DNA from: an uncultured Acidobacteriota bacterium
GTDB lineage: Bacteria > Acidobacteriota > Blastocatellia > RBC074
Direction: 5' to 3'
DNA: 64,000 nt
NCBI GenBank assembly: GCA_963796275.1
Contig: CAWCKY010000006.1
Span: 1,856,001-1,920,000 of the forward strand
Position numbers and translations under genes: made by a program
Shown: positions 2,527-60,033 of the stretch, piece after piece
Position numbering within the stretch: position 1 is the first letter of the stretch
Layout of the letters: every line of letters begins with the position of its first letter
Notes under the pieces: model-generated
Told to the model about the DNA's origin: nothing
Database searches by the model: none
The model's input: only the letters and a program-made list of their open reading frames with translations

Positions 2527-3130
2527 GGCGACTTGAGCGATTAAATAGACAAGTAGACATGTGACTATGAGTTGCAGGTGCTTCATTGGGTGATCCTCCT
2601 GATTCTTACATCAGAAACTATGACAATGCTGACCCTGATTGAACGCGGATAGTTGCTATGATTTGTTGAGCTCGTCTTGATGCCTACCGATTTGGGATAC
2701 GGCTATCGGCAAAGCTTGAGCTAACGCAATGGTGCGTACGAAGATTGGTAAAGCTCGAGCGCCTTCTACTCATGCAAGTAGAAACGCTGTAGATTTTTAA
2801 ATAGAAGCTGTGTGGGGTTTCATCCGGTAATTGATACGGCTATCTCCGGAAGTCGGCGGCATATTAGTCATTACTGAAAACAAAGTCAATCGGAAGATGC
2901 GTCATGGCGGTGAAATAGTTTACGACTCGCGCACTACGTCTTGTTTTACAGCTGATAATTTCAAGGTAAAACATCTACGAACCACCGGATGGGGAGCTTA
3001 GATGTATCCATGGAACACGCGACCGAGAAGCGATAAGCCCTGTAATATAGCAGTCGGCGCCACTGTTGAGCGTACGAGTCGTGGGGCGACGACGTCATTG
3101 AAAAAAAAGATACAACGATGGATTGCTGCT

Positions 3131-3174
3131 AATACCACCGACGGCAGTCAGCGGATCGTTAATTCCGACCTACA
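3131..3174 (+). repeat. REP-like palindrome (CCACCGACGGCAGTC.GYGG family), left copy
   Basis: aataccaccgacggcagtcagcggatcgttaa matches the reverse complement of 4014-4056 at 28 of the first 32 nt. Confidence 0.75.
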
Positions 3175-3314
3175 CCCTTACCCAGTCCTGTCCCATTGAA
3201 TATCCGCTGAAAACAGGCCAGTTATTTGAAGGGTGTGCAAATAAAATATATGGAATCAGTCGAGTGGAATTCAAAGGGCGAGTGCGTAAGTCTCATTCAC
3301 CGCAAAAGCGCGCA

Positions 3315-3743
3315 TTATGGCGCAACATCACCGTTACCGGGCCGAGCTGTGAGATATTTGTCGAAGACGTAGCATACGCCGATGCTGCAGGCAAACGCGA
3401 CGACGTCGTAGAGATCGAAGCGCCCTGCAAACACGCCTCCCGGCCAATAACGCTGGCTCACCTCAGTCAATGCACCCGCGAGGAATATCACGAGAGCCGC
3501 AGTCTCCGGGCGCGAACCAATTGTGCGATTGAGTACCGAAGCCCGGCCTGACCCAGGAAGATCGCGGGCAATTATGTAGAGCCACCCAGGTTGCGTGAGG
3601 TCGGCGCCATAGTTTGTGACGAAGCCCCCGCGAACCCGGTTCATCACTAAGGCGGCACATCCCAACCAAGCGGCAAGCAGCGCCCAGGAGGCGATCCGCC
3701 AGATGCGGGCATGTCGTTCGGGCTCAGCTATAGCTCGTTGCAT
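3315..3743 (-). CDS. hypothetical membrane protein with 3-4 hydrophobic segments
   Basis: 142-aa ORF with SD-like GAGGGA; hydrophobic helices and a GRFDLYDVVAF motif. Confidence 0.65.
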   Translation of the reverse strand: MQRAIAEPERHARIWRIASWALLAAWLGCAALVMNRVRGGFVTNYGADLTQPGWLYIIARDLPGSGRASVLNRTIGSRPETAALVIFLAGALTEVSQRYWPGGVFAGRFDLYDVVAFACSIGVCYVFDKYLTARPGNGDVAP

Positions 3744-3896
3744 TGATAGGTCCCTCTGTCAGAGGGGCGATAAAAAAACAACCGACCATATTTATAGCGC
3801 CCCCAAACTTTTCAAACTGAACTTTCAGCAATCGGGAAGGCAGATAACCTACGATCAACCCGGCGCTGAGCATCTTCTCATTCTATATCAGACCAC

Positions 3897-4016
3897 ATAG
3901 AGATTGGGACAATGGACCACGGATTTTCGCGGATGCGACGGATTAAACGCGGCTTTTTCCGCGGCGATCCGTTGCATCCGTATGTTCCGTGGTCGATCCT
4001 GGTGTCCCAAAGCTAT
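3897..4016. repeat. REP-like doublet (CCACGGATT...ATCCGT..CCGTGG) inside short inverted repeats
   Basis: Internal palindrome gaccacgga...tccgtggtc; outer ttgggaca/tgtcccaa. Confidence 0.65.
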
Positions 4017-4056
4017 GTTGGACCTTAACGATCCACCGACTGCCGTCGATGGGATT
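4014..4056 (-). repeat. REP-like palindrome, right copy inverted relative to 3131-3174
   Basis: ttaacgatccaccgactgccgtcgatgggatt. Confidence 0.75.
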
Positions 4057-4147
4057 TAGGAGTTGCATCTATAATTTAAAGACACATCGCTAGAGGTCTG
4101 GCAAAATTTTAAGGACCTCTTATTGGACTCATCAGATAGGGTCGCGG

Positions 4148-6218
4148 TTATTCGCATCTCAGAACGATCATCGGATCCACTTTCATTGCCCGTCGCGCTG
4201 GTATCCAGCAAGCCAGAAGAGTGATCAATACCAGCAATAACGCAACCAGGGTTATCGTCAGAGGGTCGGTCACGCTTACGCCAAACAACAGCGGTTTCAT
4301 CAGCTGCATCAGCGCTAGCGCCCCGCCCAACCCAATAAAAATACCGGCTAGCGCCAGCCCTAGTCCCTGTCCCACCACCAGCCTCAACACATCGCCGGGT
4401 TGCGCGCCCAACGCCATCCGAATACCGATCTCGTTCATACGCTGACTGATCGCATATGAAACCACACCATAAAGACCTACTGCAGCGAGCGTCAGTGCGA
4501 CGGCGGCAAAAATACTCAGCAGATACATCGTGAACCGCCGCTGGTTCAGTACTCCTCCAAGCACCTCATCCATGGTTCGGATGTTATATATCAAAGGCTC
4601 TCGGTCGAGTCTTCTAACTTCACTTCGTACTGCCGAAACCATGCTCATCGGGTTATCCTGAGCACGCACAAGGAGGGCCATCGAAGGCCAGGTGTGGGGC
4701 ACATAGATCGTTGGGTAACTCTCTTTTTCCATTGCCTCATGCTTGACGTCGGCGACCACACCAGCAATGGTCATCCAGGGCGTGAACGGACTCTGCGGGA
4801 GGCCCAAAGATATCTGCTGGCCGATCGGATATTGATCGCGGAAATATTGCCGCGCCAGCGATTGATTGATTAGCACCGCCTTCGGGTTGTCCTGCCTATC
4901 TTGTTCAGTGAGTGGCCGGCCGAGCACAAGTGGGATACCCATTGTCTCAATGTATCGGTCGCCAACATACAATATATTGGCATCCACTACCATCTCCGGT
5001 GGTGGCGCCGGACGCCCGGCGATATTGAAAACAATAGCACCGCGCCCACCGCTAAGCGGCAAATGACTGACCGCCGTGACTGATACGACCCCTGGCAGCC
5101 CGCGAACGTTCTCAATGAGTTGCTGGTAAAATAGTCACCAGGTGGTTGGCATCATATTTCGTTTGCGGCAGCGCGATTTGCAGCGTCAGCAAATTCTCCC
5201 GGTTGAACCCGGAATCAAGATTCATCAGCTGATGCAGGCTTTTGATGGTCAGGGCTGCACCGACCAGCAGGATCAAAGAGAGTGCCACTTCAGCCACCAC
5301 CAGGGCACGACGTAGTCGGAACCGCCCGCTACTCGCTCCACCAACGCGGTACCCTGATTTTAGAACTTCGTTCAGGTCGAGTCTCGAAAACTGGAGTGCT
5401 GGCACAAGACCGAAGAACACACCAGTCGCTAACGAGAGCAAAGCGGTAAAACCTAATACGCGTCCGTCAACGCCGATCTCGCTCAAGCGGGGAATGTCAT
5501 CCGGCCCGAGTCTCACAATTACATCAGTTCCCAAAAGTGCAAGCAGCCCTCCCGCTATACCACCCAACAATGCCAGAATAATACTTTCAGTAAGGAATTG
5601 ACGTATTAGTTGCGTCGCTGCCAGAGGCCGTAGCTGAGAATGGCAACACGCAGAGCGCCTCGACGCTCATCCTCTGGCAAGAAACCGCGTCCGAGGATGG
5701 GCCGAATACGCAGTGCAGTAAAGAAATCAGAGGTGACGGCAGCACCAGTCAGCAGTTCTGGTTCTTCCCCACTGGTGTAGCTGAAGCTTCGCCCGGTAGT
5801 TGCGGTTATTTGCTCAAAGCTCCGACTTTGATCTCGCCAGTCTACCAAGTCCGGGAGCGAAACCTCTTCGCGACCGATCTGTGGATGGGTACCCCGAATA
5901 ACGACTAGCCGGTCGGGGATCTTCATACGGGAGTGGACGAAACAGCACAGCATTGGCGACACTGAAGATCGTCGTATTCGCACCAATTCCGAGCGCAAGT
6001 ATTATCATCGAGACAACTGTGAACCCGGGATTATTTAATAACATTCTCACGCTATAGCGGAGGTCCAGCCACAAAGTGTCCAACCAACTGCCCCTCACCT
6101 CAAAGCCCTGTTCTTTAGCAGGCTTATCAATTTGGAACTGCGCTTCATCCGTTTGGTGAATCAGCCCGGTGCGTACAAGGTTGTGTACCCGATGGAACAA
6201 GCTCTTCAGCCATCTCAT
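4148..6218 (-). pseudogene. ADOP/MacB-FtsX-type duplicated ABC permease, frameshifted and internally deleted
   Basis: Four ORF fragments carry [26 protein letters not shown], ..YGLWQRR, ..LVVAEVALS.. and ..PARRAMKVDPMIVLRCE. Frameshifts near 5925 and 5130. Sequence jumps at about 5610 from WQRR directly to LIRQFLTES, so the region containing the ACANVANL motif is missing. Confidence 0.85.
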
Positions 6219-6404
6219 GATCAAAGCCCCCTTACGATCGTTTGCATTGCCTTGTTGATGACAAGCGCGCATCATTGCCAGCCATCTTCTTACCTATAGG
6301 TCGTACAAAGACTCACGGTTCTATTGAAAATCGGTTTTCGAGATCGATGATATCAGCATTGCGAGCGTACGCGATGAGAGTCCCAACAATTTCAAAAAAG
6401 CGGT

Positions 6405-6827
6405 TTATTGACATTCAGTAGGGTCATTTAAGCCCATGCCGAATTGCAGCGTGGCGGCAGGGATGAGTCTAATCCGGCGTTTCAACGCCGGCACCGGTAT
6501 CCATCCTCGCGTAGCGACGGCGTGAATGTAGCCGTGGGTTTCAACCTGGTTTCAACCCACGGTAGACACGTGAGATTGTCCCGCGTCGCGTCAGCGACGC
6601 TTGACTCAACCGTCGCTGACGCGACGCGGAGCGTTTTACTGGCTTTCCGTGCGTTAAAACGCACGGCTACATTCACGCCGTCGCTACGCGACGAAGAAGG
6701 TGGACATTTCGTGCGAAAGTTTGGGCAATGACAAGGCTTTGAAATGCCAGGCTAAATCCATAGCGTCGCGACGCGGCGGAAGCGAAAGAGGCAATCTTTG
6801 TAAAACCGATTGCCTGAAGCTCAATAG
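6405..6827 (-). mobile_element. MITE/REPIN-like element, copy 1
   Basis: Ends ttattgacattcag and ctgaagctcaatag; internal GTAGCCGTGGGTTTCAAC and CGTCGCGTAGCGACG palindromes; colinear reverse complement of 8647-9173. Confidence 0.7.
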
Positions 6828-6972: not shown

Positions 6973-7728
6973 TTATAACCTTATGCCAAAGTGCTCGCGT
7001 AGCATCTCCGCAAACTCTTCTTCATCGGTCAATAATCGCTCTTGTCGTTCGCCATGTGTGGTTGTGATAAAGCGCAACTCCCTCAACGTCACGCGACCAT
7101 CAGGCGTGGCTATCGAACAAAGCCGCCCCTGCGTGAAATGTGATAGGGGTGATGTCTGGTGAAAGCGGCACATCTCTTCGTAATCTGAATACTTATATGG
7201 CTGCAAACCGAAACGATATTGAGTCTTCCATTCACTCTCCGCTCTATCGTCGCGCCATATCAGATTCAGGTATGTCCCATCCGGGTCGATTCGATAAATG
7301 CGGTCGCCCTGCCGATGCTCACCTTTTTTATCGAGCGATAGCGGCTCAAGGAATGAATCTCCGAACCCGACATCAACGAGCCAGCGCTCGTCCAGTGTGA
7401 TCATCAACGCCATATGATCGAAATCCGGTCCGAATCCTCCTTCTGCTCTCGTAACTCTGGCTGAAAGCAAATTAACATTGAACCCGAGCGCGCGCAGGAG
7501 CGCGGCGAACAGACCGTTTGCTTCATAACAGAAACCGCCACGACGATGCACGACGATTTTCTCGAACAGAGCGTCATCATCGAGCACGATCGGTTGCCTG
7601 GCATGAATGCTAAGATTCTCGAAGGGGACGGCCAAAAGGTGCGCAACTTGTAAATCCCGCAATGTCTCGGCTGTGGGAGTGAAAGAGCCATGATAGTTGA
7701 TGCGGTCAAGATAAGCCTTGATATTCAT
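6973..7728 (-). CDS. arylamine N-acetyltransferase family protein
   Basis: VPFENL, RRGGFCYE (catalytic Cys), DHMAL and LVDVGFG (His and Asp of the triad), SHF motifs. Confidence 0.95.
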   Translation of the reverse strand: MNIKAYLDRINYHGSFTPTAETLRDLQVAHLLAVPFENLSIHARQPIVLDDDALFEKIVVHRRGGFCYEANGLFAALLRALGFNVNLLSARVTRAEGGFGPDFDHMALMITLDERWLVDVGFGDSFLEPLSLDKKGEHRQGDRIYRIDPDGTYLNLIWRDDRAESEWKTQYRFGLQPYKYSDYEEMCRFHQTSPLSHFTQGRLCSIATPDGRVTLRELRFITTTHGERQERLLTDEEEFAEMLREHFGIRL

Positions 7729-7788
7729 ATGGACGCTCTTCTTAGACTGGTTATCTCAGCGGTTTTCAGATGAAACTGCATTACTAAT

Positions 7789-8427
7789 CTACTTATTATT
7801 ATGCGAGCCGGTCAAAGCGGTCATCGTGCCGAGCCCGAAATAAACGCTTCCAGCGAAATAGCGTTGAATTCGGAAGAACCTGGGATTACCGCGCAGCAGA
7901 TTTCCGATGCTTCCGGCCAGGAGCGCGTAAGTCGAATCGCTCAAGGTTCCCAATACGATCAATATTGCGCCCAGAAACAGGATCTGTCCCACCATCGAAC
8001 CGCGCTTCACATCGATAAATTGCGGCAGAAAAGCGAAGAAGAATAACGCGCTCTTCGGATTTAAAACATGAACCAAAATACCTTGATAAAAAGTGCGGCT
8101 TAAACTTTTCTCCTCGACCTTTTCTTTCTTTACAATCTCTTCCCGCGTCAACAACGTTTTAATACCGAGATAGACGAGATAGGCTGCGCCCACGTATTTC
8201 ACGATGTTAAAAGCCAGAGCCGATGATAAAAGTAACGCCGACACGCCGAAAGCGGCTGCGGCGATATGGAACAGCGTGCCTACTTGAATCCCCAGGCTCG
8301 ATACGATTCCAGCTTTGCGTCCCTGTTGAACGCTGCGGGTAATGATGTAGAGGGTGTTCGGCCCCGGCATTAACACTAAAATCAAGGCTGCGGTAATGAA
8401 TAGGGATAGCATCGACCAGTCCGGCAT
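7789..8427 (-). CDS. LysE/RhtB family amino-acid exporter
   Basis: PGPN near the N-terminus, GAAYLVYLG and LNPK motifs; ATG 8427 has SD TAAGGA. Confidence 0.93.
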   Translation of the reverse strand: MPDWSMLSLFITAALILVLMPGPNTLYIITRSVQQGRKAGIVSSLGIQVGTLFHIAAAAFGVSALLLSSALAFNIVKYVGAAYLVYLGIKTLLTREEIVKKEKVEEKSLSRTFYQGILVHVLNPKSALFFFAFLPQFIDVKRGSMVGQILFLGAILIVLGTLSDSTYALLAGSIGNLLRGNPRFFRIQRYFAGSVYFGLGTMTALTGSHNNK

Positions 8428-8646
8428 GTTTATTTCCTTATCTAATTTTAGAAGATTCACCACGTAAACTCCGAAAGATTACCAAGCAAAAAGAAACTGT
8501 AACACTCATATACCGTGAGACGCATCGATTCGCGTAGTGACGGTCGATTCACGATTGCTCAACCGTCGCTACGCGACTTGGGAAGTCATGAAATGCCGAC
8601 CCGCCCTTAATGGTCTTGAAAAAATAACCTGATGGTCCCTCTCCAC

Positions 8647-11384: not shown

Positions 11385-12646
11385 TCAGTGGCTTTGAACC
11401 TCGCGCAGGCGGCGCTCGAGATATCTGCGCTCGCTCTCATTGGTGACCAGCGCCAGCGCTCGTTTGTAGCTTTTCGCTGCTTCTCCCAAAGACCCGGCGC
11501 GGCGCAACAGATCAGCGCGTGCGGCGTGCAGCAGGTGATAATCGTCCAGATCGCCGCTGGCGGCCAGCGCATCGATGAGGGTCGAGCCCACTCTTTGGGC
11601 CGTCGACCATGGCGACAGCCACAGCCCGGTTGAGCGATACGATAGGAGAGGGCTGCAGACGTTCGAGGATGTTGTAGAGCCCGACGATTTGGGGCCAGTC
11701 GGTGTCTTCTGCGCGTGCCGCCTGGCAATGCAGCGCCGCGATTGCCGCCTGCAACGCATATGGACCGGGTCCGTCGCGAAAAGCCTCCTCGACCAACGGC
11801 AGCGCCTCGGCAATCTGCTGCCCGTTCCAACGGCGGCGATCCTGATCTTCGAGCACGACGAGATCGCCGGCTTCATCGAGACGGGCCTCGCGCCGCGAAT
11901 CGTGAAGCAGCATGAGCGCGAGGAGCGCCGTCGCTTCAGCTGGCGGTTGCGGCGCCATCAACATCCGCACCAGTCGGCCGAGCCGAATAGCCTCCGCGCA
12001 GAGATCAGCCCTCAACAGCGGCCCGCCCCGGGTCGCCACATAGCCTTCATTGAAGATGAGATAGATCACCGTCAGAACAGCGTCGAGCGCGCTCGGGCAT
12101 ATCGTTCGTGTCGGGCATCGAATATGGAATGCCCGCGTCGCGAATCTTCCGCTTGGCGCGTACGAGCCGCTGCGCCATCGTCGCGGTGGGCACAAGAAAC
12201 GCGCGTGCGATCTCTTCCGTCTCAAGGCCGCCCAGCGTGCGGAGCGTCAGCGCTACCTGAGCTTCGAGCGTCAGCGCCGGGTGGCAGCACGTGAAGATCA
12301 GCCGAAGTCGATCGTCCGGTATTTCGTCAGTATCATAATTCGGCTCCTCCATCGTCCGGATCAGCCCGGACTCAACGTACGATTCAATTTTTTCCGCAAA
12401 CCGCGTACGGCGACGGATGCGGTCGATGGCCTTGTGCCGGGCAGTCTGGATGATCCACGCGCGGGGGAACTCAGGGACGCCGGTGGCCGGCCACTGGTCG
12501 ACCGCGGCCGCGAAGGCTTCCTGCGCCACCTCTTCGGCGAGGTCGAAGTCGCCCACGAGCCTGATCAGAGTTGCGACGATCATCCCCCAGTCGGAGCGAT
12601 AGACCGAGTCTATGGTTGAGTTAGCTGAATTTGCATTGTGGAGCAT
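11385..12646 (-). CDS. ECF42-type RNA polymerase sigma factor with C-terminal extension; two +1 frameshifts
   Basis: LAEEVAQEAF, DDRLRLIFTCCHPAL, QRLVRAK, YLIFNEGY, QDRRRW, GPYALQAAIAALH, SPIVSLNRAVA and ARADLLRR spread over three frames; shifts near 12090 and 11595. Confidence 0.88.
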
Positions 12647-50505: not shown

Positions 50506-52923
50506 CTATTCGCATCGCAGGGCGACCATCGGGTCCAGCTTCGATGCGCGGCGAGCCGGGACGTAGCAAGCCAACAACGCGACCAGCGCCAACAGCGCCG
50601 CCACGCCGACATACGTCACGGGATCGGTCGCACTCACGTTGAAGAGCAATCCGCGGATAAGCCTGGTCAACGCGAGGGCCGACGCCAGCCCGATCCCCAC
50701 GCCCGCCAATACGAGAACCATTCCCTGTGTAATAACCATCCGCAACACATCTCTGTTCTGCGCTCCAATAGCTACGCGAATGCCGATCTCATGCGTCTGC
50801 TGCGCGACGGCGTAAGACATCACGCCGTAAATGCCCGCTGTCGCCAACAGCAGCGCGAGCGCCGAAAAGAGTCCCAGCAGCAAAAGCGTGAATCGTTCCT
50901 GCCCGATCGATTGGGTCGTAATCTCGTCCATCGGACTGATGTTCGAGATAGCCAGGTCTTTATCAATCGCGGCGATCGCGCCCCGCAGCGCCTGACTCAG
51001 GCTCAACGGGTTGGCCGCAGTGCGGGCGACGATGACCATTCGTCGCGACGGTTGCTGGCGGTCGGGAAAGAACATTGAAACGCGGGCGTCCTGGTTCAGG
51101 CCGAAATGTTTGACGTCAGCCGTCAGGCCGACGATCTCGCGCCAGCCGTCGGGACGCCCGTTGCCGATGCGTTTGCCGATCAGCTCTCCATTTGGGAAGT
51201 GACGGCGCGCCGCGGCCTCGCTAATGATGACGACTTTGGGTGCATTCTCGTTGTCGCGTTCAGTGAACTCGCGCCCCGCGATGAGCCGCATGCCCATTGT
51301 GCCGAAATAACCGGGGCTCGCGGAGCTGATCCAGGCAACCGGGCGTTGATTGGGCGGCGGTTCGGGACGCCCTTCGATCACGAATCCGGCGTCTGAGTCG
51401 AAGCCCGCGAGCGGAAGCGACGAAACCACAGCGGCCGATTGCACGCCGGGCAGCGTCCTGACGCGCTCCAAAAGCTGGCTGTAAAAAGGTGCGATTTGAT
51501 CGCGTCCGGGGTAGACCGCCTGCGGCAATGTCACGACGGCGGTCAAAACGTTGCGCGGGTTGAAGCCCGGATCGACTCGTTGAAGCTGGATGAAGCTCCT
51601 GATCAGCAATCCCGCGCCGACGAGCAGCATCAGCGCCAATGCGATCTCGGCCACCACCAATGTGCTGAGCGCGCGGCGTCCGCTTCGGACACCCTGCGCT
51701 CCTTTGCCGCTATCGCGGAGGGATTGATTGAGATCGGCCTTGAAAAGCTGCCAGACAGGCGCGGCGCCGAACATCAATCCCGTCAATACCGTGGTCGCCA
51801 TCGTGTAACCCAATGCGCGCCAATCGATCCCGATCTCATCAATGCGCGGCGTTCCCTGCGGGCTGAAACTGACCAGCAGATAGACCAGCCAGTACGATAG
51901 CAACAATCCGACTGCTCCGCCGATCACAGCCAGCAATAGACTCTCCGACAACAGCTGCCTCGCGATGCGCCACTGGCCTGCCCCCAGCGAGGCACGGATA
52001 GCGATCTCCTTCTCGCGCACGGCCGACCGCGCCAGCAGGAGGTTCGCCACATTGGCGCACGCGATCAGCAGCACAAATGCGACGGCGACTAACAGCGCCA
52101 GCATCTGCGTCTTCACCGGTCCGACCAGAAATTCCTGGAGCGGAACGAGCGTAGCGCCGATCTTCGTGTTCGTATCGGGAAACTGCTGTTCGATGCGCGC
52201 GGCAATGGCGTTCAACTCGGTGCGCGCTTGCGCCTCGTTCGCTTCCGGTTTCAATCGCGCCATCACGCGGATTGTGATGCATCCGCGCTGGCATCCCGAA
52301 TTGAGGACAGGCTGGATCGGACGCCAGATATCGGCGTCGGCGATGATCGGAAACTTGAAGCCCGCCGGCATGACGCCGATAACCACGCGGCTCTCGCCGT
52401 TGAGCGAAATCCTGCGGCCTACCAGCGATGGATCCGCGCCGAAACTCTTCCGCCACAATCCGTGGCTGATAATGACAACGCTCTCAGCTCCTCGCTGATC
52501 TTCCTCCGGGCGAAACGAGCGACCCAGCGCAGGCGCGACGCCGAGCATCGCGAATGCGTCGTGCGAAACCTGAGCGCCGGCTAACCGCTCCGGCTCGCCC
52601 TGTCCGGTCAGAGTCGGCTGCCAGTTCTGAAACGCCACGACGTGATCGAACGAATTCGCTTGTTCGCGCCAGTCTTCAAAACCCGGAGGCGAAGTCCATT
52701 CATCCACCGGCCCGTTGCGCGCGCGATGGTCTTCCCAGATAGTCATCAGCCGATCGGCGTTCGGAAAAGGCAGCGGGCGCAGCAGCACTGAATTGACGAC
52801 GCTGAAGATCGCCGTATTCGCGCCGATGCCCAGCGCCAGCGTCAGGAGGGCAACCAACGTGAAGCCGGGCCTCTTCATCAATATTCGTGCGCCGTAGCGC
52901 AAGTCCTGCCAAACCATACCCAT
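50506..52923 (-). CDS. ADOP-type duplicated ABC permease
   Basis: Same motif set; intact 805 aa. Confidence 0.95.
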   Translation of the reverse strand: MGMVWQDLRYGARILMKRPGFTLVALLTLALGIGANTAIFSVVNSVLLRPLPFPNADRLMTIWEDHRARNGPVDEWTSPPGFEDWREQANSFDHVVAFQNWQPTLTGQGEPERLAGAQVSHDAFAMLGVAPALGRSFRPEEDQRGAESVVIISHGLWRKSFGADPSLVGRRISLNGESRVVIGVMPAGFKFPIIADADIWRPIQPVLNSGCQRGCITIRVMARLKPEANEAQARTELNAIAARIEQQFPDTNTKIGATLVPLQEFLVGPVKTQMLALLVAVAFVLLIACANVANLLLARSAVREKEIAIRASLGAGQWRIARQLLSESLLLAVIGGAVGLLLSYWLVYLLVSFSPQGTPRIDEIGIDWRALGYTMATTVLTGLMFGAAPVWQLFKADLNQSLRDSGKGAQGVRSGRRALSTLVVAEIALALMLLVGAGLLIRSFIQLQRVDPGFNPRNVLTAVVTLPQAVYPGRDQIAPFYSQLLERVRTLPGVQSAAVVSSLPLAGFDSDAGFVIEGRPEPPPNQRPVAWISSASPGYFGTMGMRLIAGREFTERDNENAPKVVIISEAAARRHFPNGELIGKRIGNGRPDGWREIVGLTADVKHFGLNQDARVSMFFPDRQQPSRRMVIVARTAANPLSLSQALRGAIAAIDKDLAISNISPMDEITTQSIGQERFTLLLLGLFSALALLLATAGIYGVMSYAVAQQTHEIGIRVAIGAQNRDVLRMVITQGMVLVLAGVGIGLASALALTRLIRGLLFNVSATDPVTYVGVAALLALVALLACYVPARRASKLDPMVALRCE

Positions 52924-53303: not shown

Positions 53304-53420
53304 TTGGAACCTATAAGTAAAGATGTCCTGCCCGGCACGCTCAACCTGATGGTTCTTAAGACCCTGTGCAGCTCGGGCCTCATTGCTTGTTCCGGTTTAT
53401 TGAATTATGGGGGGGAACAC
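53304..53420 (+). pseudogene. PadR N-terminal remnant, in frame with the downstream permease
   Basis: MEPISKDVLPGTLNLMVLKTL matches the start of the 42179 PadR; the promoter block is also conserved. Confidence 0.8.
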
Positions 53421-56081
53421 ATGACCTGGTTACGAGTCTTCATCCATCGGCTGCGCGGGTTGATCTTGAAGAGAAAATTGGAGCAGGAGCTGGAGGACGA
53501 AATCCGCGCTCATCTCGATATGCAGATTGAGGAGAACCTGCGGCAGGGGATGAGTCCGGACGAGGCGCGATATCAGGCCCTGCGAAAATTCGGTGGTGTC
53601 GAGCAGGTGAAAGAAAGTTACCGGGATCGCCGCGGTCTGGCGGTAGTGGATTCAACACTTCGGGATTTACGCTACGCGTTGCGTATGCTGAGTCGTAGTC
53701 CAGGCTTCACTGCCGTGGCCGTGCTGACGCTCGCGCTGGGCATTGGAGCAAACACGGCTATCTTCAGCATGTTGGAGGGCGTTGTGTTGGCGCCGCTGCC
53801 CTATAGGGAGGCTGAACGTCTGGTCGTAGTGTGGCATAGCGATTCACGCGCTCCACGTATATTTCCTTCCGTGCCGGACTTCCATGACTGGCAACGCAAT
53901 GCCCGCTCATTTGAGCACATGGTTGCAATCGGATTCACGGCGCGTGATCTGACCAGTCCTGGGGCTCCCACGCATCTTGATGGAAGAGAAATCTCTCCCG
54001 CCTTTTTTAGTACGCTTGGCGTAAATCTAAGCCTCGGCCGCGAGTTTTCGTCCCAAGAAGACCAGCCTGGCGGAAATCGAGTGGTCATAATCAGCCACCG
54101 TCTCTGGCAAGATCGGTTCGGTGGAAGCCGGGATGTGCTGGGCCGATCGGTGATGCTGAACGGGATTGATCATACCATTGTCGGTGTTCTCCCATCCGGC
54201 TTTGAATTCGGAGGTGGTAGGGAAGCGGATGTTTTTACGCCATTTGGGCAGGGTAATCCTAAAGCTATCAACGATCGCGGTATCCATCCTGGATTCCTCT
54301 GTGTTGCGCGCCTGAAGCCCGGCGTCACTATCGCTCAGGCAAAGTTTGAGATGGCTACGATCCAGAATTCGCTAAGTCAGCTATATCCTTCAACAAGTCG
54401 AGGTTTAAGCGCAAATGTCGTGCCACTCAAGCAGGTAATCGTGGGGGACGCCGATGAAACACTCCTTCTTTTGATGGGAGCGGTGGGACTGGTTTTGCTG
54501 ATCGCCTGTGCAAACATAGCGAATCTTCTGCTGGCACGCGCAGAGGCGCGTTCGGCCGAGTTTGCCATCCGCATCTCTCTGGGGGCGAGCCGAAAGCATC
54601 TCGCTTCTCAATTGATTACCGAAAGCCTGCTGCTCACGGTTGGGGGAGGAGTCCTCGGGTTGGCGATGGCAAAATGGGCGGTAATTCCCTCTCTGGCTGC
54701 TGTGCCGATGAACCTACCACGGAGTGCAAACATCGGTGTGAACATATCAGTCCTCCTTTTCACCTTCGGACTGACAATCGTGGTTGGAATACTGTTCGGT
54801 CTGGCGCCGCTAGTGAAGAGTTCGAACCCGGACCTCCAAGGCTCATTGAAGGAAGGAGGTCGTGGCGTCTCGAAAGGCCAGCATAATGTTCAAAGGAGCC
54901 TGGTGATCGTCCAGATGGCGTTGACTCTGGTTTTACTGACGGGGGCTATGCTTTTGTTTCGGACGGTCCGCCACTTATGGGCGGTCGACCCTGGATTTAA
55001 TAGCCAGCGCATTATCACCTTCAGAGTGGGTATTTCGCCTGCACTGACAAAGACGGCTTTAAGTTGGCGAACTGCCTATCAGCAATTAACCGAGCGCATT
55101 CAGCATATTCCAGGAGTGCAAGCTGCAGCTTTTACCATGCTGGTGCCCCTAACATGGCAGGCCAACACCGCGCCTTTCTGGATTGGCCCAAAAGAAACTA
55201 CCTCCAGAGCAGAGGCGCCGCATCTACACTTGCAATGGACAGGGCCTGAGTACATCAAGACGATGGAGATACCGCTGCTTCGTGGGCGCTTATTGACAAT
55301 GGATGATACCTTGCAGTCTGAACCTGTTATTGTAATCGACAGCATTCTTGCGCAGACCTATTTCCCCGATAAGGATCCCGTGGGCCAGACCATTACATTT
55401 CCAATTTGGGGCACCGTCCGGATTGTGGGAGTAGTCGGGCATGTCAGACTGGCCGACGACGAAAATCGTACCCGGAATCAGGCTTACGCTTCCGTCTACC
55501 AGCTTCCGGATGATTGGGTGCCGGTATTCTACCCGGGGTTGACAATGGTAGTTCGAACGCAAGTCGATGGCGCAACCTTGCTGCCTGCGATGAGGGACAT
55601 AGTTTATGGAGCGGGGAACGACCAGCCCATCTATGATATTCGTACTATGCAGGAGATTATGTCAGAGTCGATCGCCCCGCGGCGTTTTCCCATGCTTTTA
55701 CTTGGAGCATTTGCTCTGCTGGCCCTGTTACTGGCGGCTGTGGGAATCTACGGCGTGATCACCTACATGACGATCGAGCGCACACACGAGATCGGGGTTC
55801 GCATGGCGCTCGGGGCCAACCGAGGGTGCATTTTGCGAATGATAGTCGGAGGAGGGCTCCGATTGGCTCTTATCGGCGTTGCAATTGGAGTGTCAGCCGC
55901 ATTGATTTTCGGCCGCATTATGTCGAGTTTCTCGCGTTTACTGTACGGGGTTCAGCCCTGGGATCCATTGACGCTGGTTGCCATCTCTCTGGTATTGATA
56001 TGCACGACCCTTTTGGCCTGTTACCTTCCTGCGCGCCGTGCCGCCGGCGTGGATCCGATGATTGCGTTACGGCACGAATGA
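53421..56081 (+). CDS. ADOP-type duplicated ABC permease with N-terminal prefix domain
   Basis: LEQELEDEIRAHL..EARYQALRKFGG prefix, RDLRYALR, ACANIANL, PARRAAGVDP. Confidence 0.95.
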   Translation: MTWLRVFIHRLRGLILKRKLEQELEDEIRAHLDMQIEENLRQGMSPDEARYQALRKFGGVEQVKESYRDRRGLAVVDSTLRDLRYALRMLSRSPGFTAVAVLTLALGIGANTAIFSMLEGVVLAPLPYREAERLVVVWHSDSRAPRIFPSVPDFHDWQRNARSFEHMVAIGFTARDLTSPGAPTHLDGREISPAFFSTLGVNLSLGREFSSQEDQPGGNRVVIISHRLWQDRFGGSRDVLGRSVMLNGIDHTIVGVLPSGFEFGGGREADVFTPFGQGNPKAINDRGIHPGFLCVARLKPGVTIAQAKFEMATIQNSLSQLYPSTSRGLSANVVPLKQVIVGDADETLLLLMGAVGLVLLIACANIANLLLARAEARSAEFAIRISLGASRKHLASQLITESLLLTVGGGVLGLAMAKWAVIPSLAAVPMNLPRSANIGVNISVLLFTFGLTIVVGILFGLAPLVKSSNPDLQGSLKEGGRGVSKGQHNVQRSLVIVQMALTLVLLTGAMLLFRTVRHLWAVDPGFNSQRIITFRVGISPALTKTALSWRTAYQQLTERIQHIPGVQAAAFTMLVPLTWQANTAPFWIGPKETTSRAEAPHLHLQWTGPEYIKTMEIPLLRGRLLTMDDTLQSEPVIVIDSILAQTYFPDKDPVGQTITFPIWGTVRIVGVVGHVRLADDENRTRNQAYASVYQLPDDWVPVFYPGLTMVVRTQVDGATLLPAMRDIVYGAGNDQPIYDIRTMQEIMSESIAPRRFPMLLLGAFALLALLLAAVGIYGVITYMTIERTHEIGVRMALGANRGCILRMIVGGGLRLALIGVAIGVSAALIFGRIMSSFSRLLYGVQPWDPLTLVAISLVLICTTLLACYLPARRAAGVDPMIALRHE

Positions 56082-56195
56082 TCGCGGTCGCGGATAAGGC
56101 TAGTGTTGATTACACTGGGATCGTCCTATCGCAGTTACTACCAACCCAATCCAGTCCAATAGTCCTTTCACCATTTGATGGACCCGAAAGTATAC

Positions 56196-56372
56196 GACTG
56201 CGAGATGCATGTGAAATTCGCGAATTTCCTCTATTCCCATTTCCTTTGGATGCCTCACCTTGCGAAAAATGTGAAACGTTTAATCCCCTGGACATAGGTT
56301 TGCTCCGTGGCTAAACTTAAGTGGTGCAGCCGCATCAGCTCAAAGTTAATCAAGAGGTTTTGGTTTGGCCAG
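56196..56372 (-). pseudogene. intI: integron integrase N-terminal (SAM-like) domain remnant
   Basis: Across frameshifts reads KPKPLD*L/ELMRLHHLSLATEQTYVQGIKRFTFF/KVRHPKEMGIEEIREFHMHLAV, following the IntI N-terminal pattern LLDQ.R..R..HYS..TE..Y..WI.RF..FH..RHP.EMG..E...FL.HLA; catalytic domain absent. Confidence 0.8.
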
Positions 56373-56512
56373 GATATTCTCCGTCAAATTGTTATCAGGT
56401 AGGGGGTTGGCCGTACCGGCATTTCGGTATCACACTTTCTGCTACACAGGAAGAATTGTTTTACTGAGTTGGGGCTATGAGTATTCTGCGGCGCTCTGCC
56501 CGTCTATCAACT

Positions 56513-56544
56513 AAATGGGCAGATGGGCAAATGGGCAAATGGGC
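56513..56544 (+). repeat. 8-bp tandem repeat (ARATGGGC) x4
   Basis: aaatgggc agatgggc aaatgggc aaatgggc. Confidence 0.9.
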
Positions 56545-56682
56545 TATTGATGAGGCCAATGCCAGGCCCAAACAGGAAACTCCTCCAAAATGAACCGGTG
56601 TATACGCTGCCTCTCGAACGGTGGTGTCTAGGCGCAGCGGTCGTGGCCACGGTCGTGGCCGTTCTAATATCTGGAGGAACAA

Positions 56683-57618
56683 ATGGACAAACCTCGCATA
56701 TTCCTAGGCTCGTCAGGAAAACAGGAGAAGCTGCTCCAGGCACTGACGCGTGGTCTCGAAGACGTCGCGCACGTAAAGCCCTGGACGACATCCTTCAATC
56801 CCGGGACCACCACACTTGAACGCCTCCTCGAGCTCACCCGTGAAGTCGACTTCGCGGTCTTCGTGTTCGCTCAGGACGACTGGACGACTAACAGCCCGAA
56901 CAGCCCGCCGGAATCGCCTCAACCGGGGTCCGGTCAGGCTTCTCCGCGAGATAATGTCGTCTTCGAAGCCGGCCTTTTTGGCGGAGTCCTCGGAATGCGC
57001 CGAACCTTCATCCTCCATGCGAGCGGCTCGAAGCTTCCAAGCGATCTCCTCGGCCTCACGTCAGTCCGGTACGGCGGAGCCACCCCGGCAGAAATAAGAA
57101 TTATCAACCAGAAGCTCCGCAAGGCGATCGAGAACGAGGGCCGCGTGGCCCGTATCGATGGACTGTGGTGGCAATTTGCCCTGACGGAGCGCACCGCGAG
57201 GGAGCCTTCCGTCTTGAGCCTTATGAGGTTTTCGCGGGACCGCGACGGCGTGCTGGAGGTGGCCGGCCGTGCATGGCGAGAGGATGGCCGCCTGTCAGCG
57301 AGATACTGGAGCGAGGCGGTCAAGGAGAAGAAGGAGACTTCGTGCATCTTCTGGTATTGGAAGGGAGAACGGCCGCTGGACCCGGACGCGCCGCAGTTGG
57401 ACGGGACGGGAGAGATCCGGATGGAATCGGCTGAGCGCGGGTCCGGGTACTTCACGACTCATGCGGACACGCACCCGGGTGTGAAGACGCGGACGGCCGG
57501 TGTCTACTGGCGGGCCGATGCAGAGGACATGATCATCATGGACGGACGCGACGAGCAGAAGCGCGCGGAGCTGATCGCAGAGCGGCTGAGGCATTGGAAG
57601 TCGATCAAGGACACTTGA
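56683..57618 (+). CDS. Cap12/Pycsar-type TIR-like domain protein with Trp-rich beta-strand C-terminal domain
   Basis: KPRIFLGSS, PW...F..G..TLE.L, DFAVFVFAQDD, PRDNVVFEAGLFGG.LG..RTF, KLPSDLLG; SD GGAGG. Confidence 0.85.
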   Translation: MDKPRIFLGSSGKQEKLLQALTRGLEDVAHVKPWTTSFNPGTTTLERLLELTREVDFAVFVFAQDDWTTNSPNSPPESPQPGSGQASPRDNVVFEAGLFGGVLGMRRTFILHASGSKLPSDLLGLTSVRYGGATPAEIRIINQKLRKAIENEGRVARIDGLWWQFALTERTAREPSVLSLMRFSRDRDGVLEVAGRAWREDGRLSARYWSEAVKEKKETSCIFWYWKGERPLDPDAPQLDGTGEIRMESAERGSGYFTTHADTHPGVKTRTAGVYWRADAEDMIIMDGRDEQKRAELIAERLRHWKSIKDT

Positions 57619-57999
57619 GATCAGCGCAGGGAAGGAGCCTGGAATTATGGTCACACGTGCGCCAGACCGTATATCCACGGTGAGCCTAACTCGAAAAAAC
57701 GCCGCATCTACGTTGGATAAATAGGGAATACGACCGCCGGCGGCCACCTACGATCTGGCGCGGTCCGTTTGCCGGTGCGCTGAGCGACGTAAGTATCTCG
57801 TAGCCGCCACCCGATTATTGGTCAAACTTTGAAGGAAGGTGGCGGCCGGGTGAACTCCCTGTTTGAAGGCATAGAGACTTGCCGAACGCCATAGTTTCTC
57901 CCAATGCCACCAATGCTCCCTTGCCCCATTTCCCCACGGCGATGCTGCTTTTCGCGCATCGAATTTGCGCCGATCAATTACATCCCCGTCCTGAGGCTA

Positions 58000-58479
58000 T
58001 CACTGCTGCTGTGTGACCGATCTTTTCGGATGGCTCTGCCAGATGATGTTGACGATCATCCATTTGCCATCGAATTTCGCCAGGTGCATGTAATCGATAC
58101 CCCACTCGGCCACCAGCTTTGCCGTCGCAGTCTGATCCAGCACATCGTAGACAGTGATCTCTTTCGGCGCGTCTTTCGGCAGATTGCCTTCTTTGTTGAA
58201 GTTCTTGGCGATCTCGATCAGACGCTCGAATGTCATCGATGCGCCTGGGCGGTACACCACGTCTGCCGCCGGGCGATAGAACCCGAGTTTAGCGAGTTTG
58301 GGATGCACGCTGCGCTCGATTCGCGATGGGTCAACGTTGTAGATGCCTTCGACATAATCGAGCGCCGCCTGCCGCACGGCTTCCCGGTCGAGATTATTTG
58401 CGGACCCTGTTTGCGCCTGCGCCGAACAGAACGGCAGAACGAACAACGTAGCGAGAGCCAGCAAAAATGATCTTTTCAT
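58000..58479 (-). CDS. secreted NTF2-like (putative lumazine-binding) protein
   Basis: Signal peptide; DYVEG, HPKLAK, ATAKL...WGIDYMHLAK.DGKWMIVNIIW. Confidence 0.85.
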   Translation of the reverse strand: MKRSFLLALATLFVLPFCSAQAQTGSANNLDREAVRQAALDYVEGIYNVDPSRIERSVHPKLAKLGFYRPAADVVYRPGASMTFERLIEIAKNFNKEGNLPKDAPKEITVYDVLDQTATAKLVAEWGIDYMHLAKFDGKWMIVNIIWQSHPKRSVTQQQ

Positions 58480-58664
58480 ACTAAACCTCCATTGGATCGG
58501 AATTATTAAGAATGGGACCTTAACGCCACCTACGAATCCACCTTCGTTGCCCGCGGCGCCGGACCAAAAAACTGTTGTAAACGTAAGAGGCCGGACGCAC
58601 AGCTTCCGCGGGTGATCTCATCAGAGAATCGGTTCGCGGAGACACGCGTTCACATGCATCGAAT

Positions 58665-58796
58665 AATCAAACGCCGCGCCATAATTACCGAAAAACTAAA
58701 TTGCTATATTGCTTGGCTTAGAAGTTAGCTCGTTAGTCTAGGTCACCTCTATCGTGCGCTTCCGGGATTGCGGTGTCTCGATAATGGGAAATTCTG
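58665..58796 (-). promoter_or_regulatory. sigma54-like promoter/enhancer block homologous to 62588-62722
   Basis: aatcaaacgccgcgcca-N14-ctaaat ... gtgcgcttccgggattgcggtgtctcgataatgggaaa. Confidence 0.6.
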
Positions 58797-59061
58797 AAGG
58801 ACTTAAATCAAGATGACTCCATTTTGATTCCCCGCTGCCTGGCGAAGTGTAGACCGGCGCTACGCAAAGCTCTCACTCCGTGCTAAATTCATTCCCTCGC
58901 TTAAAGCAGGAGATTACTTTGGCCTTATTGGAAATTTATGGTGATGGAAGGTTGGGGAGATATTCTACGACACTCTGAAAAGCAATCCCGTAAAACGAGG
59001 CTTCACTCCAGCCGCATCTTTACAAAAGCGAATATGATCAGTTCTATCAGGGGGTGGGTTT

Positions 59062-60033
59062 GTGAAAGCACGAACAGCTGACCCGCCTTCACTCTCTACG
59101 CAAAAAGGAATCTGGCCGAAGCTGCTTTTTATCGCGGGGCTGGTTTTCGTCCTCACCCCATGGTCGTCGCCGCCGCTCGCCCTCACGCTCGGGTTGGTCT
59201 TCGGACTAACGATTACGCATCCGTACCACTCTTTTTCTCAGTCATTGTCCAAAATCCTGCTCCAAGTCTGTGTCGTGGGGCTGGGGTTTGGGATAAATCT
59301 GTACGATGTGTTGGAGGTTGGGCGGTCCGGCTTTCTTTACACCTTTATAAGCATCTGCTTCGTGCTAGCAGCGGGCTGGGCACTCGGCAGGCTCTTGAAA
59401 GTCGATCCTGCCAGCAGCTATCTCATTGCTGTTGGTACGGCGATTTGCGGCGGCAGCGCGATTGCGGCAGTGGGGCCGGTCATTGAAGCCACGGACGAAG
59501 AGATGTCTGTGTCGCTCGGCACCGTCTTCATTCTCAACTCAGTCGCGTTGTTAGTGTTCCCTGCGATCGGGAGATATGTTGGACTGACGCCCGAGCAGTT
59601 CGGCCTCTGGGCGGCGCTGGCGATCCACGACACCAGTTCGGTCGTCGGGGCTGGCATCAAATACGGAGCATCCGCGCTCTCTGTAGCGACAACGGTCAAA
59701 CTCGCACGCGCTTTGTGGATCGCGCCGGTGGCTCTGGCGACCGCCGCCTGCAAGCGGAGCGGCGCACAGATCAAATGGCCGTGGTTCATCATCCTTTTTA
59801 TCGCGGCCTCCGTGGTCAACACCTATTTACCGAGGGGTTCATCACTTTACAGTCAGATTACTATGTTGTCGAAGATAGGGTTGATCGTCACTCTCTATCT
59901 GATCGGCAGCAACATTTCTCGTTTGACTCTGCAAGTTGTCGGCGTGCGCCCGTTTTTGCAGGGCACTCTTTTATGGGTCCTCGTAAGCGTGCTATCGCTC
60001 GTCCTCGTTTATCTGGGCATCATCATTCTCTGA
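59062..60033 (+). CDS. YeiH/UPF0324 (putative sulfate exporter) family membrane protein
   Basis: GTAICGGSAIAA, FGLWAALAIHDTSSVVGA, TVKLARALWI; start uncertain. Confidence 0.9.
   Translation: MKARTADPPSLSTQKGIWPKLLFIAGLVFVLTPWSSPPLALTLGLVFGLTITHPYHSFSQSLSKILLQVCVVGLGFGINLYDVLEVGRSGFLYTFISICFVLAAGWALGRLLKVDPASSYLIAVGTAICGGSAIAAVGPVIEATDEEMSVSLGTVFILNSVALLVFPAIGRYVGLTPEQFGLWAALAIHDTSSVVGAGIKYGASALSVATTVKLARALWIAPVALATAACKRSGAQIKWPWFIILFIAASVVNTYLPRGSSLYSQITMLSKIGLIVTLYLIGSNISRLTLQVVGVRPFLQGTLLWVLVSVLSLVLVYLGIIIL

Follow-up and report, generated by a model that had tools for sequence, protein, structure and literature searches.

Why would a lone gene for a TIR-domain protein stand next to the remains of an integrase? 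This question is raised by contig CAWCKY010000006.1 of an uncultured Acidobacteriota bacterium, from which we analysed one stretch of 64,000 nucleotides (64 kb, hereafter the window). It holds an intact TIR gene and, beside it, a short integrase relic that lies on the minus strand and points away from the gene. We lean towards reading the locus as a chromosomal integron reduced to a stump, an element of a known kind, with a single immobilised TIR effector gene that would derive from a cassette. The preliminary description of this DNA had also proposed a decayed integron carrying a defence-type effector from a cassette. That proposal stands as the best-supported reading, owing to the relic, the cassette arrays around three orthologues (L003, L004, and L058), and the boundary of the gene, whereas the att sites offered for it proved wrong.

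According to the integron-stump reading, the TIR gene would have been the first cassette to integrate at the former attI site, and the attC site of its own cassette would since have been lost. Because that attC is gone, the gene would now be fixed in place. We infer the cassette origin from relatives of the gene in other genomes, not from att sites in the window; at the level of sequence comparison, the relatives NEVERTHELESS support it.

Cassette context and boundary of the TIR gene

Genome stretches with a TIR relative were available from 452 genomes (one genome per species), and the best 80 of them served as orthologue loci (labels of the type L001), with the attC context judged within 6 kb of the TIR gene. 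To detect attC sites we built a covariance model (R1) from 13 sites of class 1 arrays on plasmids, which recovered three of three held-out sites (55, 32.4, and 21.6 bits) plus further untrained ones. R2 is the iterated attC model, and R3 is a lineage model with a poor RNAalifold structure (5 pairs). These models were trained on sites from proteobacterial mobile integrons and from a few loci found here, and divergent or decayed sites could escape them.

At E < 0.05, R1 found attC-type sites at five of the 80 orthologue loci, and R2 with filters off added L003. Thus, the expectation that TIR homologues occur in attC context was borne out at six of 80 loci, three of them clear arrays (L003, L004, and L058); L030, L016, and L006 have one or two attC-type matches each. 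The array of L058, from a Xanthomonadaceae metagenome-assembled genome (MAG), has attC sites of 60 nt and 40-79 bits; on the TIR strand, sites of 40-76 bits flank the gene on either side. For L004, a Pyrinomonadaceae MAG, we found five attC sites (13-25 bits), each 1-205 nt after an open reading frame (ORF) on the plus strand; three of them are paralogues of about 130 nt, and from the end of the array to the TIR start codon there are 174 nt. In L003, the genes form an array on one strand, and attC sites follow several of the ORFs. The site at 5824-5882 of this locus agrees at 93-96% with the two arms of its attC at 182-312. It folds like an attC, its R boxes being paired and its bulges single bases, and GTTAGTC forms its end.

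The boundary of the TIR gene was located by aligning the window with two of these arrays. The three TIR leaders align from exactly the first G of a shared core (Table 1). To the right of this point, the window and L003 agree at 33 of 45 positions (shuffles 23.5 +/- 2.2, maximum 30) and L003 and L004 at 30 of 45; to the left, the counts are at chance level (23/45 and 22/45, respectively). We regard this point as a probable cassette boundary, since homology that sets in at the R' core of the attC in front is the signature of such a boundary. Between it and the 5' end of the divergent relic there are 140-180 nt, and a first cassette would have its place there. A promoter scan of the window's leader found no sigma-70-like site, as expected, because cassettes rarely hold promoters; that integron cassettes seldom contain them is stated in the IntegronFinder paper (PMC4889954).

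At the other end, the homology of the three most similar tails (the window, L008, and L003) stops at an RYYYAAC heptamer (GCCTAAC or GCCCAAC; 6990-6996 in L008, 6995-7001 in L003), after which the sequences diverge abruptly. The heptamer may be what is left of a lost attC, namely its R'' box; normal cassette recombination, with its crossover in R', leaves the abrupt divergence unexplained.

Table 1. Coordinates of the features at the TIR locus, as positions of the window
Feature	Position	Strand	Basis or remark
TIR gene, 311 aa, intact	56683..57618	+	Pfam, PADLOC, PDB sequence search, AF2, Foldseek, dN/dS
Conserved 5' leader travelling with the TIR gene	56561..56682	+	Locus alignments, promoter scan
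Degenerate core GCCAGGC	56561..56567	+	Aligns with GTTAGTC (L003) and GTTAGGC (L004); homology of the TIR unit starts here
3' tail common to L008 and L003 (72-75 nt), ending at GCCTAAC 57684-57690	57619..57693	+	Alignments, covariance model searches
Spacer between relic and cassette boundary; presumed place of the former attI	56422..56560		Position from frame translation and alignment
Integrase relic, first frame (about residues 14-39 of integron integrases, N-terminal SAM-like domain)	56264..56341	-	PF13495, BLASTP
Integrase relic, second frame (about residues 38-62)	56196..56270	-	PF13495, BLASTP, plasmid tblastn
In-frame TGA just upstream of the recognisable relic	56384..56386	-	Frame translation

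The att sites of the preliminary description did not hold up. GTTGGGG at 56469, proposed as an attI-like core at about 56468, has a G as its seventh base, which fails GTTRRRY, and it lies about 93 nt off the homology boundary. The strings of the proposed attC piece GCCTAAC..GTTGGAT (57684-57718) do exist and form the best R1 match in 56000-58100; the match scores 5.3 bits (E 1.9 in this 2.1-kb search), aligns the R boxes alone, spans 35 nt, and shows no folding (z +0.13). Further downstream, a 9-bp hairpin (gccgccacc/ggtggcggc, 57803-57811 with 57838-57846) is present as described, but its region (57650-57870) folds no better than shuffles (z -0.18; 85/200 shuffles fold at least as well). Neither the hairpin nor the nested repeats I3 and I4 were kept as an attC or as a notable feature. 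The 13-mer occurs five times at up to 2 mismatches, with 2.2 expected and 6/100 shuffles reaching five.

Other candidates were also discarded. The best attC-model match in the window (11972-12033, plus strand; 14.9-16.5 bits, E 0.1-0.23, partial model coverage) is probably noise, and R3 gave noise only. On the plus strand, RYYYAAC heptamers number 42 (about 55 in shuffles) and GTTRRRY heptamers 53 (about 54). A reversed TIR cassette starting at the minus-strand GTTAGGC was rejected, since the arrays of L003, L004, and L058 run on the TIR strand. Degenerate attC sites after the tail are unsupported in L003 (6995-7071, z +0.94) and L008 (6990-7039, z -1.26), and the suspicion that a tRNA gene abuts the TIR copy of L008 proved wrong.

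Several smaller features surround the boundary. Four tandem 8-mers (AAATGGGC-like) occupy 56513-56547, 14 nt upstream of it, and an inverted partner of 12 nt lies at 56495-56506; the 8-mers may be what remains of integrase-binding repeats of attI, or a product of simple slippage. Within the leader, the direct repeat CGGTCGTGGCC occurs twice (56638-56660) and makes a GGCCACG..CGTGGCC palindrome, which is found in the same place in L003, L005, L010, and L054 and may act as an operator or a 5'-UTR (untranslated region) hairpin. The block CGGCCACG.GCGCGGCCGATCT is kept in group-A leader copies across phyla and had no match in Rfam. For the arrays themselves, L004 2596-5276 and L058 1-8394 are bona fide cassette arrays; among their cassettes are Fic/DOC, glyoxalase, and FRG, besides many ORFs with no family assigned.

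The integrase relic

The relic spreads over two overlapping stop-to-stop pieces of the minus strand in different frames: piece A (56258-56383) and piece B (56103-56279). Both have PF13495 (Phage_int_SAM_4) as their sole Pfam match, piece A at profile positions 7-33 (E 0.0039) and piece B at positions 32-55 (E 0.013). A single match of this kind carries no meaning, because six of 34 other stop-to-stop intergenic pieces from two intergenic regions also match Pfam at E <= 1 (best 0.0039, all unrelated families). We accepted the relic because two adjacent pieces match the same one of 24,736 families, in colinear order and at contiguous profile coordinates. Against NCBIfam, the sole match of piece A was TIGR02249, 'integron integrase' (E 0.047, 13 bits vs. 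a cut-off of 265).

Pairwise alignments with real integrases agree with the profile matches. We used the annotated integron integrase of a Kovacikia plasmid (L081), which is 49.5% identical to IntI1 over the full length. Piece A aligns with its residues 14-39 (46% identity, pairwise E 6e-7) and piece B with residues 38-62 (56% identity, pairwise E 4e-7). Piece A also aligns with residues 22-47 of IntI1 (E 3e-5); BLASTP gave no alignment of piece B with IntI1. With tblastn against plasmids, piece B matched 236 records overall, and seven of the 15 rows listed are annotated as integron integrase or IntI2. The best match of piece A falls in a Proteus record, 300 nt from dfrA1 and divergent from it, where intI2 lies in a class 2 integron; it is unannotated in that table. 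Named recombinases among the tblastn matches listed are integron integrases or IntI2 only. A PDB phmmer search with the relic pieces returned spurious matches only, and a PHROGs search nothing.

The frameshift between the pieces lies at about 56262-56272, and the similarity stops at 56196, so that about 260 codons are gone, including the catalytic domain and the IntI-specific insertion, and only about 50 N-terminal codons are recognisable. No PF00589 catalytic domain was found in stop-to-stop pieces of at least 22 aa in any frame of 56082-56690. An ATG (about 56420-56422, minus strand) lies beyond the in-frame TGA; the original start is therefore not fixable. With an in-frame stop, a frameshift, and a truncation, 56196-56341 is a real pseudogenised integrase remnant. 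Its N-terminus is best read as integron-type, its SAM-like domain being most similar to known IntI. The frameshifted IntI-type N-terminus that had been proposed on the minus strand from 56196 is thus confirmed by two colinear PF13495 frames and BLASTP, and the end of the similarity at 56196 is the very start that had been claimed.

Two promoter-like sites lie close by: one at 56289-56317 (plus strand), within the relic and directed at the TIR gene, and one at 56510-56483 (minus strand), directed at the relic. Two such sites are a chance count (1.6 expected). The first is placed as Pc is in class 1 integrons.

Weighing the rival explanations

Several results weigh against an integron stump. No attC was detected in the 64-kb window under R1, R2, or R3 with filters off, and none was called in 56-58 kb, so the covariance check of the att claims came out negative. 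On the right-hand side of the boundary, the similarity of the window to L004 lacks significance (27/45 vs. 23.9 +/- 2.3), and the L004 anchor in this comparison is one base off. L005, L010, and L054 share just 52-74 nt of leader and stand in non-integron contexts. Moreover, a second leader type, described below, is common to Alphaproteobacteria and Arthrobacter. Given these short leaders in ordinary contexts and the second leader type, the TIR gene also moves outside integrons. The 45 ORFs of L003, L004, and L058 include no integrase.

The other points of this kind that concern the gene are the ones on which the main rival draws, namely that relic and TIR gene are coincidental neighbours. The relic would then come from an empty integron platform (In0-like) or from a vanished array, and the TIR gene would have arrived separately by a non-integron route. 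In favour of this, 74 of the 80 loci have no attC-type site within the 6 kb, and no integrase occurs among 231 representative neighbour ORFs (the two nearest ORFs on each side per locus, one representative per blastp cluster). Neither in the window nor at the 80 loci does an attC directly follow the TIR gene, leader and tail lengths vary among loci, and the core of the window is mutated and not a valid GTTRRRY. A non-integron route is also evident in most other genomes. Against it stand the homology of the window and L003, which begins at the R' of an attC and drops to chance level leftward, the distance and divergent orientation of the relic expected of an integron, and the three orthologues in clear arrays. 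We judge coincidental neighbourhood unlikely, while taking it seriously.

For the relic, the picture is mixed as well. Integron integrases are its best plasmid matches, as the preliminary description would have it, but its Pfam and NCBIfam scores lie far under their cut-offs. Lone profile matches as strong as those of the relic arise by chance, as seen in the 34-piece control, and word-indexed homologue searches with pieces A and B found none. The IntI family is defined by the IntI-specific insertion near patch III and the intI_Cterm profile, as set out in the IntegronFinder paper (PMC4889954). This C-terminal part is gone, so IntI membership of the relic is unprovable.

A second rival makes use of this: the relic would be a non-integron tyrosine recombinase with the same SAM-like domain, and a decayed integrative island or prophage would have brought the TIR gene. 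PF13495 is not restricted to IntI, the N-terminus alone survives, and TIGR02249 gives only 13 bits. Yet the recombinases named among the plasmid matches all belong to integrons, the surroundings of the TIR gene turned up neither a tRNA nor direct-repeat att sites nor further island or phage genes, and the orthologues show array contexts and no island integrase. This makes the island or prophage origin improbable. Finally, a chance resemblance in non-coding DNA is already very unlikely: single Pfam matches of E 0.004-0.05 in six of the 34 control pieces and the empty homologue searches would allow it, but not two adjacent pieces hitting the same family in the right order at contiguous positions, nor the alignment of contiguous residues of a real IntI at the pairwise E-values given above.

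The integron-stump reading places the locus among the decay products of chromosomal integrons. As in these, the relic is divergent from the captured gene, the integrase is pseudogenised, and the start of the TIR unit lines up with a GTTRRRY core in the orthologues that still sit in arrays. Decayed integrons, In0 elements, clusters of attC sites lacking integrases (CALIN), and intI pseudogenes are described by Cury et al. (2016, PMC4889954). The locus differs in having no attC at all, only about 50 recognisable integrase codons, and a mutated core; under the IntegronFinder definitions it would count neither as a complete integron, nor as In0, nor as CALIN. Chromosomal integrons of Acidobacteria are reported in PMC8352920, and their attC sites are modelled there and in PMC9176274. 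Isolated cassettes and insertion outside att sites are described in a preprint (bioRxiv 10.1101/2022.09.11.507474).

Another preprint reports integron cassettes that encode phage defence (bioRxiv 10.1101/2024.07.02.601719). Like the cassettes described there, the window has a defence-type gene in cassette position beside an integrase. Unlike them, its putative cassette would be immobilised, its defence role is predicted by homology, the unit is large (about 1.1 kb), and the gene is widespread outside integrons. As an integron fossil the locus is ordinary, since decayed integrons, acidobacterial integrons, and defence genes in cassettes are all already described. It would be a concrete case of a cassette-borne defence gene that became a fixed chromosomal gene after decay of the platform. 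The gene product is the more interesting object: a predicted TIR effector with a new sensor-like barrel, without a partner, and 69-92% identical across many phyla.

The TIR-barrel protein and its spread

By homology, the gene encodes a member of the CAP12/PycTIR TIR family (PF10137). Residues 5-130 match PF10137 (CAP12/Pycsar TIR) with E 1.7e-24 and 86.5 bits (cut-off 24.7), which upholds the TIR gene of the preliminary description; the higher GC content claimed for it is likewise correct. The TIR domain is N-terminal (residues about 1-150) and followed by a C-terminal part (residues about 155-311). PADLOC recognised a CBASS TIR effector (3e-30) and PycTIR (2e-23) in the N-terminal half, and the PDB sequence search returned Cap12 (7un8, E 1e-14; 9lmq) and PycTIR (8jsj, E 5.5e-8). 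The NCBIfam Cap12 models gave 72 and 36 bits vs. a cut-off of 450, the better one (NF050172) spanning residues 3-150 only. No Pfam, PADLOC, or PDB sequence match was found for residues 150-311. The TIR domain contains the motif PRDNVVFEAG, of which PRDNVVFE is common to Cap12. Its Glu at E95, the putative catalytic residue, is at least 90% conserved across a 23-sequence alignment.

Structure models added information on the C-terminal part. The AF2 model of the whole protein has a pLDDT of 83.6, and its Foldseek match is the TIR of TIR-STING (E 1.6e-9, 28-34% identity over about 156 columns). Modelled alone, the C-terminal part (pLDDT 89.5, pTM 0.85) is predicted to form an eight-stranded up-and-down beta-barrel followed by two helices. 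The best Foldseek matches of the barrel are designed ligand-binding barrels, lipocalins, and nitrobindins (E 6e-4 to 1e-2, TM about 0.5); its top structural neighbours are thus small-molecule-binding eight-stranded barrels. A kinship with the Cap15 receptor is a lead only, the protein-atlas score of 0.77 being within the range of shuffled proteins. We found no description of the TIR-barrel architecture in a narrow literature search (PF10137; TIR with Cap15, barrel, or NADase).

Compared with known systems, the protein shares the N-terminal PF10137 TIR, PRDNVVFE, overall length, and domain order with Cap12 (TIR-STING) of CBASS (7un8, 9lmq), whereas its C-terminal domain would be an eight-stranded beta-barrel in place of STING and no CD-NTase gene lies nearby. 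PycTIR of Pycsar (8jsj) has the same TIR family, but at its C-terminus (residues 154-285), and the window has no adjacent cyclase gene. Like Cap15, the beta-barrel receptor of cyclic nucleotides (PF18153), the protein has a small barrel fused to an effector and could act as a nucleotide receptor; unlike Cap15, its barrel has no Pfam or PADLOC match, and no PDB Cap15 is among the 50 Foldseek matches listed.

Based on this homology, the protein would be a ligand-gated hydrolase of nicotinamide adenine dinucleotide (NAD+) of the Cap12 or PycTIR kind. The lipocalin-like barrel would bind a small-molecule signal, ligand binding would lead to oligomerisation of the TIR domains, and the active site containing E95 would deplete NAD+, so that phage infection is aborted. 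No cyclase, CD-NTase/nucleotidyltransferase, or other partner gene was found among the genes of the window, and no conserved neighbour gene was found across the orthologue loci outside a few genera. Since no cyclase or partner is encoded nearby, the signal would have to be supplied by the phage or by another part of the cell. This sequence of ligand binding, oligomerisation, NADase, and defence activity is the mode of action that homology predicts as most likely. Identifying the ligand of the barrel would reveal how a lone TIR NADase gets switched on.

For the protein as a whole, we tentatively suggest, as a possibility that we would not call likely, a self-contained immune protein that joins sensor and effector in a single gene, or an orphan receptor of a signal made elsewhere, with a previously undescribed lipocalin-like ligand-sensing domain. 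It would have swept recently through at least 10 soil phyla with integron cassettes as one vehicle, and the window would record how an acidobacterial integron captured and fixed it.

Judged by composition and divergence, the TIR gene is foreign, horizontally acquired, and very mobile. Its GC content is 0.619 vs. 0.552 for the window, with 0.546 and 0.55 in the neighbouring genes; one other segment (50506-52923) is as GC-rich. All of at least 8000 scored candidates (90%-identity clusters) match the TIR protein at E <= 0.001, and the best 120 clusters, those listed, are 80-92% identical over the full length. Among the relatives in 452 species genomes, the best 80 share 69-85% amino acid identity and come from at least 10 phyla. 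They include Acidobacteriota, Alpha- and Gammaproteobacteria, Nitrospiraceae, Rokubacteria, Gemmatimonadota, Actinomycetota, Chloroflexota, Planctomycetota, and Myxococcota.

The coding sequence (CDS) is 85-87% identical to copies from other phyla at the nucleotide level, and the synonymous divergence (dS) to copies of Nitrospiraceae, Rokubacteria, Gammaproteobacteria, and Gemmatimonadaceae is 0.28-0.39. A GC content above that of the window and a dS to other phyla this low are why we call the gene foreign. The ratio of nonsynonymous to synonymous divergence (dN/dS) is 0.22-0.34 for the whole gene; the TIR domain has 0.11-0.22 and the barrel 0.27-0.51. Orthologue CDSs keep a GC content of 0.626 +/- 0.029 while that of their flanks spans 0.44-0.73.

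Some orthologue loci have further features. The second leader type is unrelated to that of the window and contains TTGACA as a conserved box, about 105 nt ahead of the TIR start (L015, L057, L028, L045, L018, L039, and L042). In L002 and L009 (7055-11637), the TIR gene is followed by further genes of defence type, namely SIR2-TIR and an nSTAND1 NTPase (the L009 pair by clustering), and in L003 by an nSTAND-type NTPase (7117-8559). At two of 80 loci, a nicotinate/nicotinamide phosphoribosyltransferase of NAD salvage lies directly upstream of the TIR gene (L023 4411-5994 and L033 4318-5763). A salvage gene beside a putative NAD-consuming enzyme is suggestive and may be due to chance.

The host chromosome looks acidobacterial: the window encodes nine MacB/FtsX-type permease paralogues, four PadR regulators, and ordinary metabolic genes. 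No intact integrase or tRNA was found among its genes, an Rfam scan of 55000-59500 at E <= 10 gave no relevant family, and there is no synteny with any orthologue locus outside the TIR unit. The locus is bracketed by a permease gene (53304-56081, plus strand) and a lumazine-binding-like gene (58000-58479, minus strand). The former encodes an ADOP permease, runs convergent to the integrase relic, and has its stop at 56081, about 115 nt from the truncation of the relic at 56196. Far from the locus, the region 110-6731 consists mostly of short ORFs without Pfam families plus a permease ORF of truncated look.

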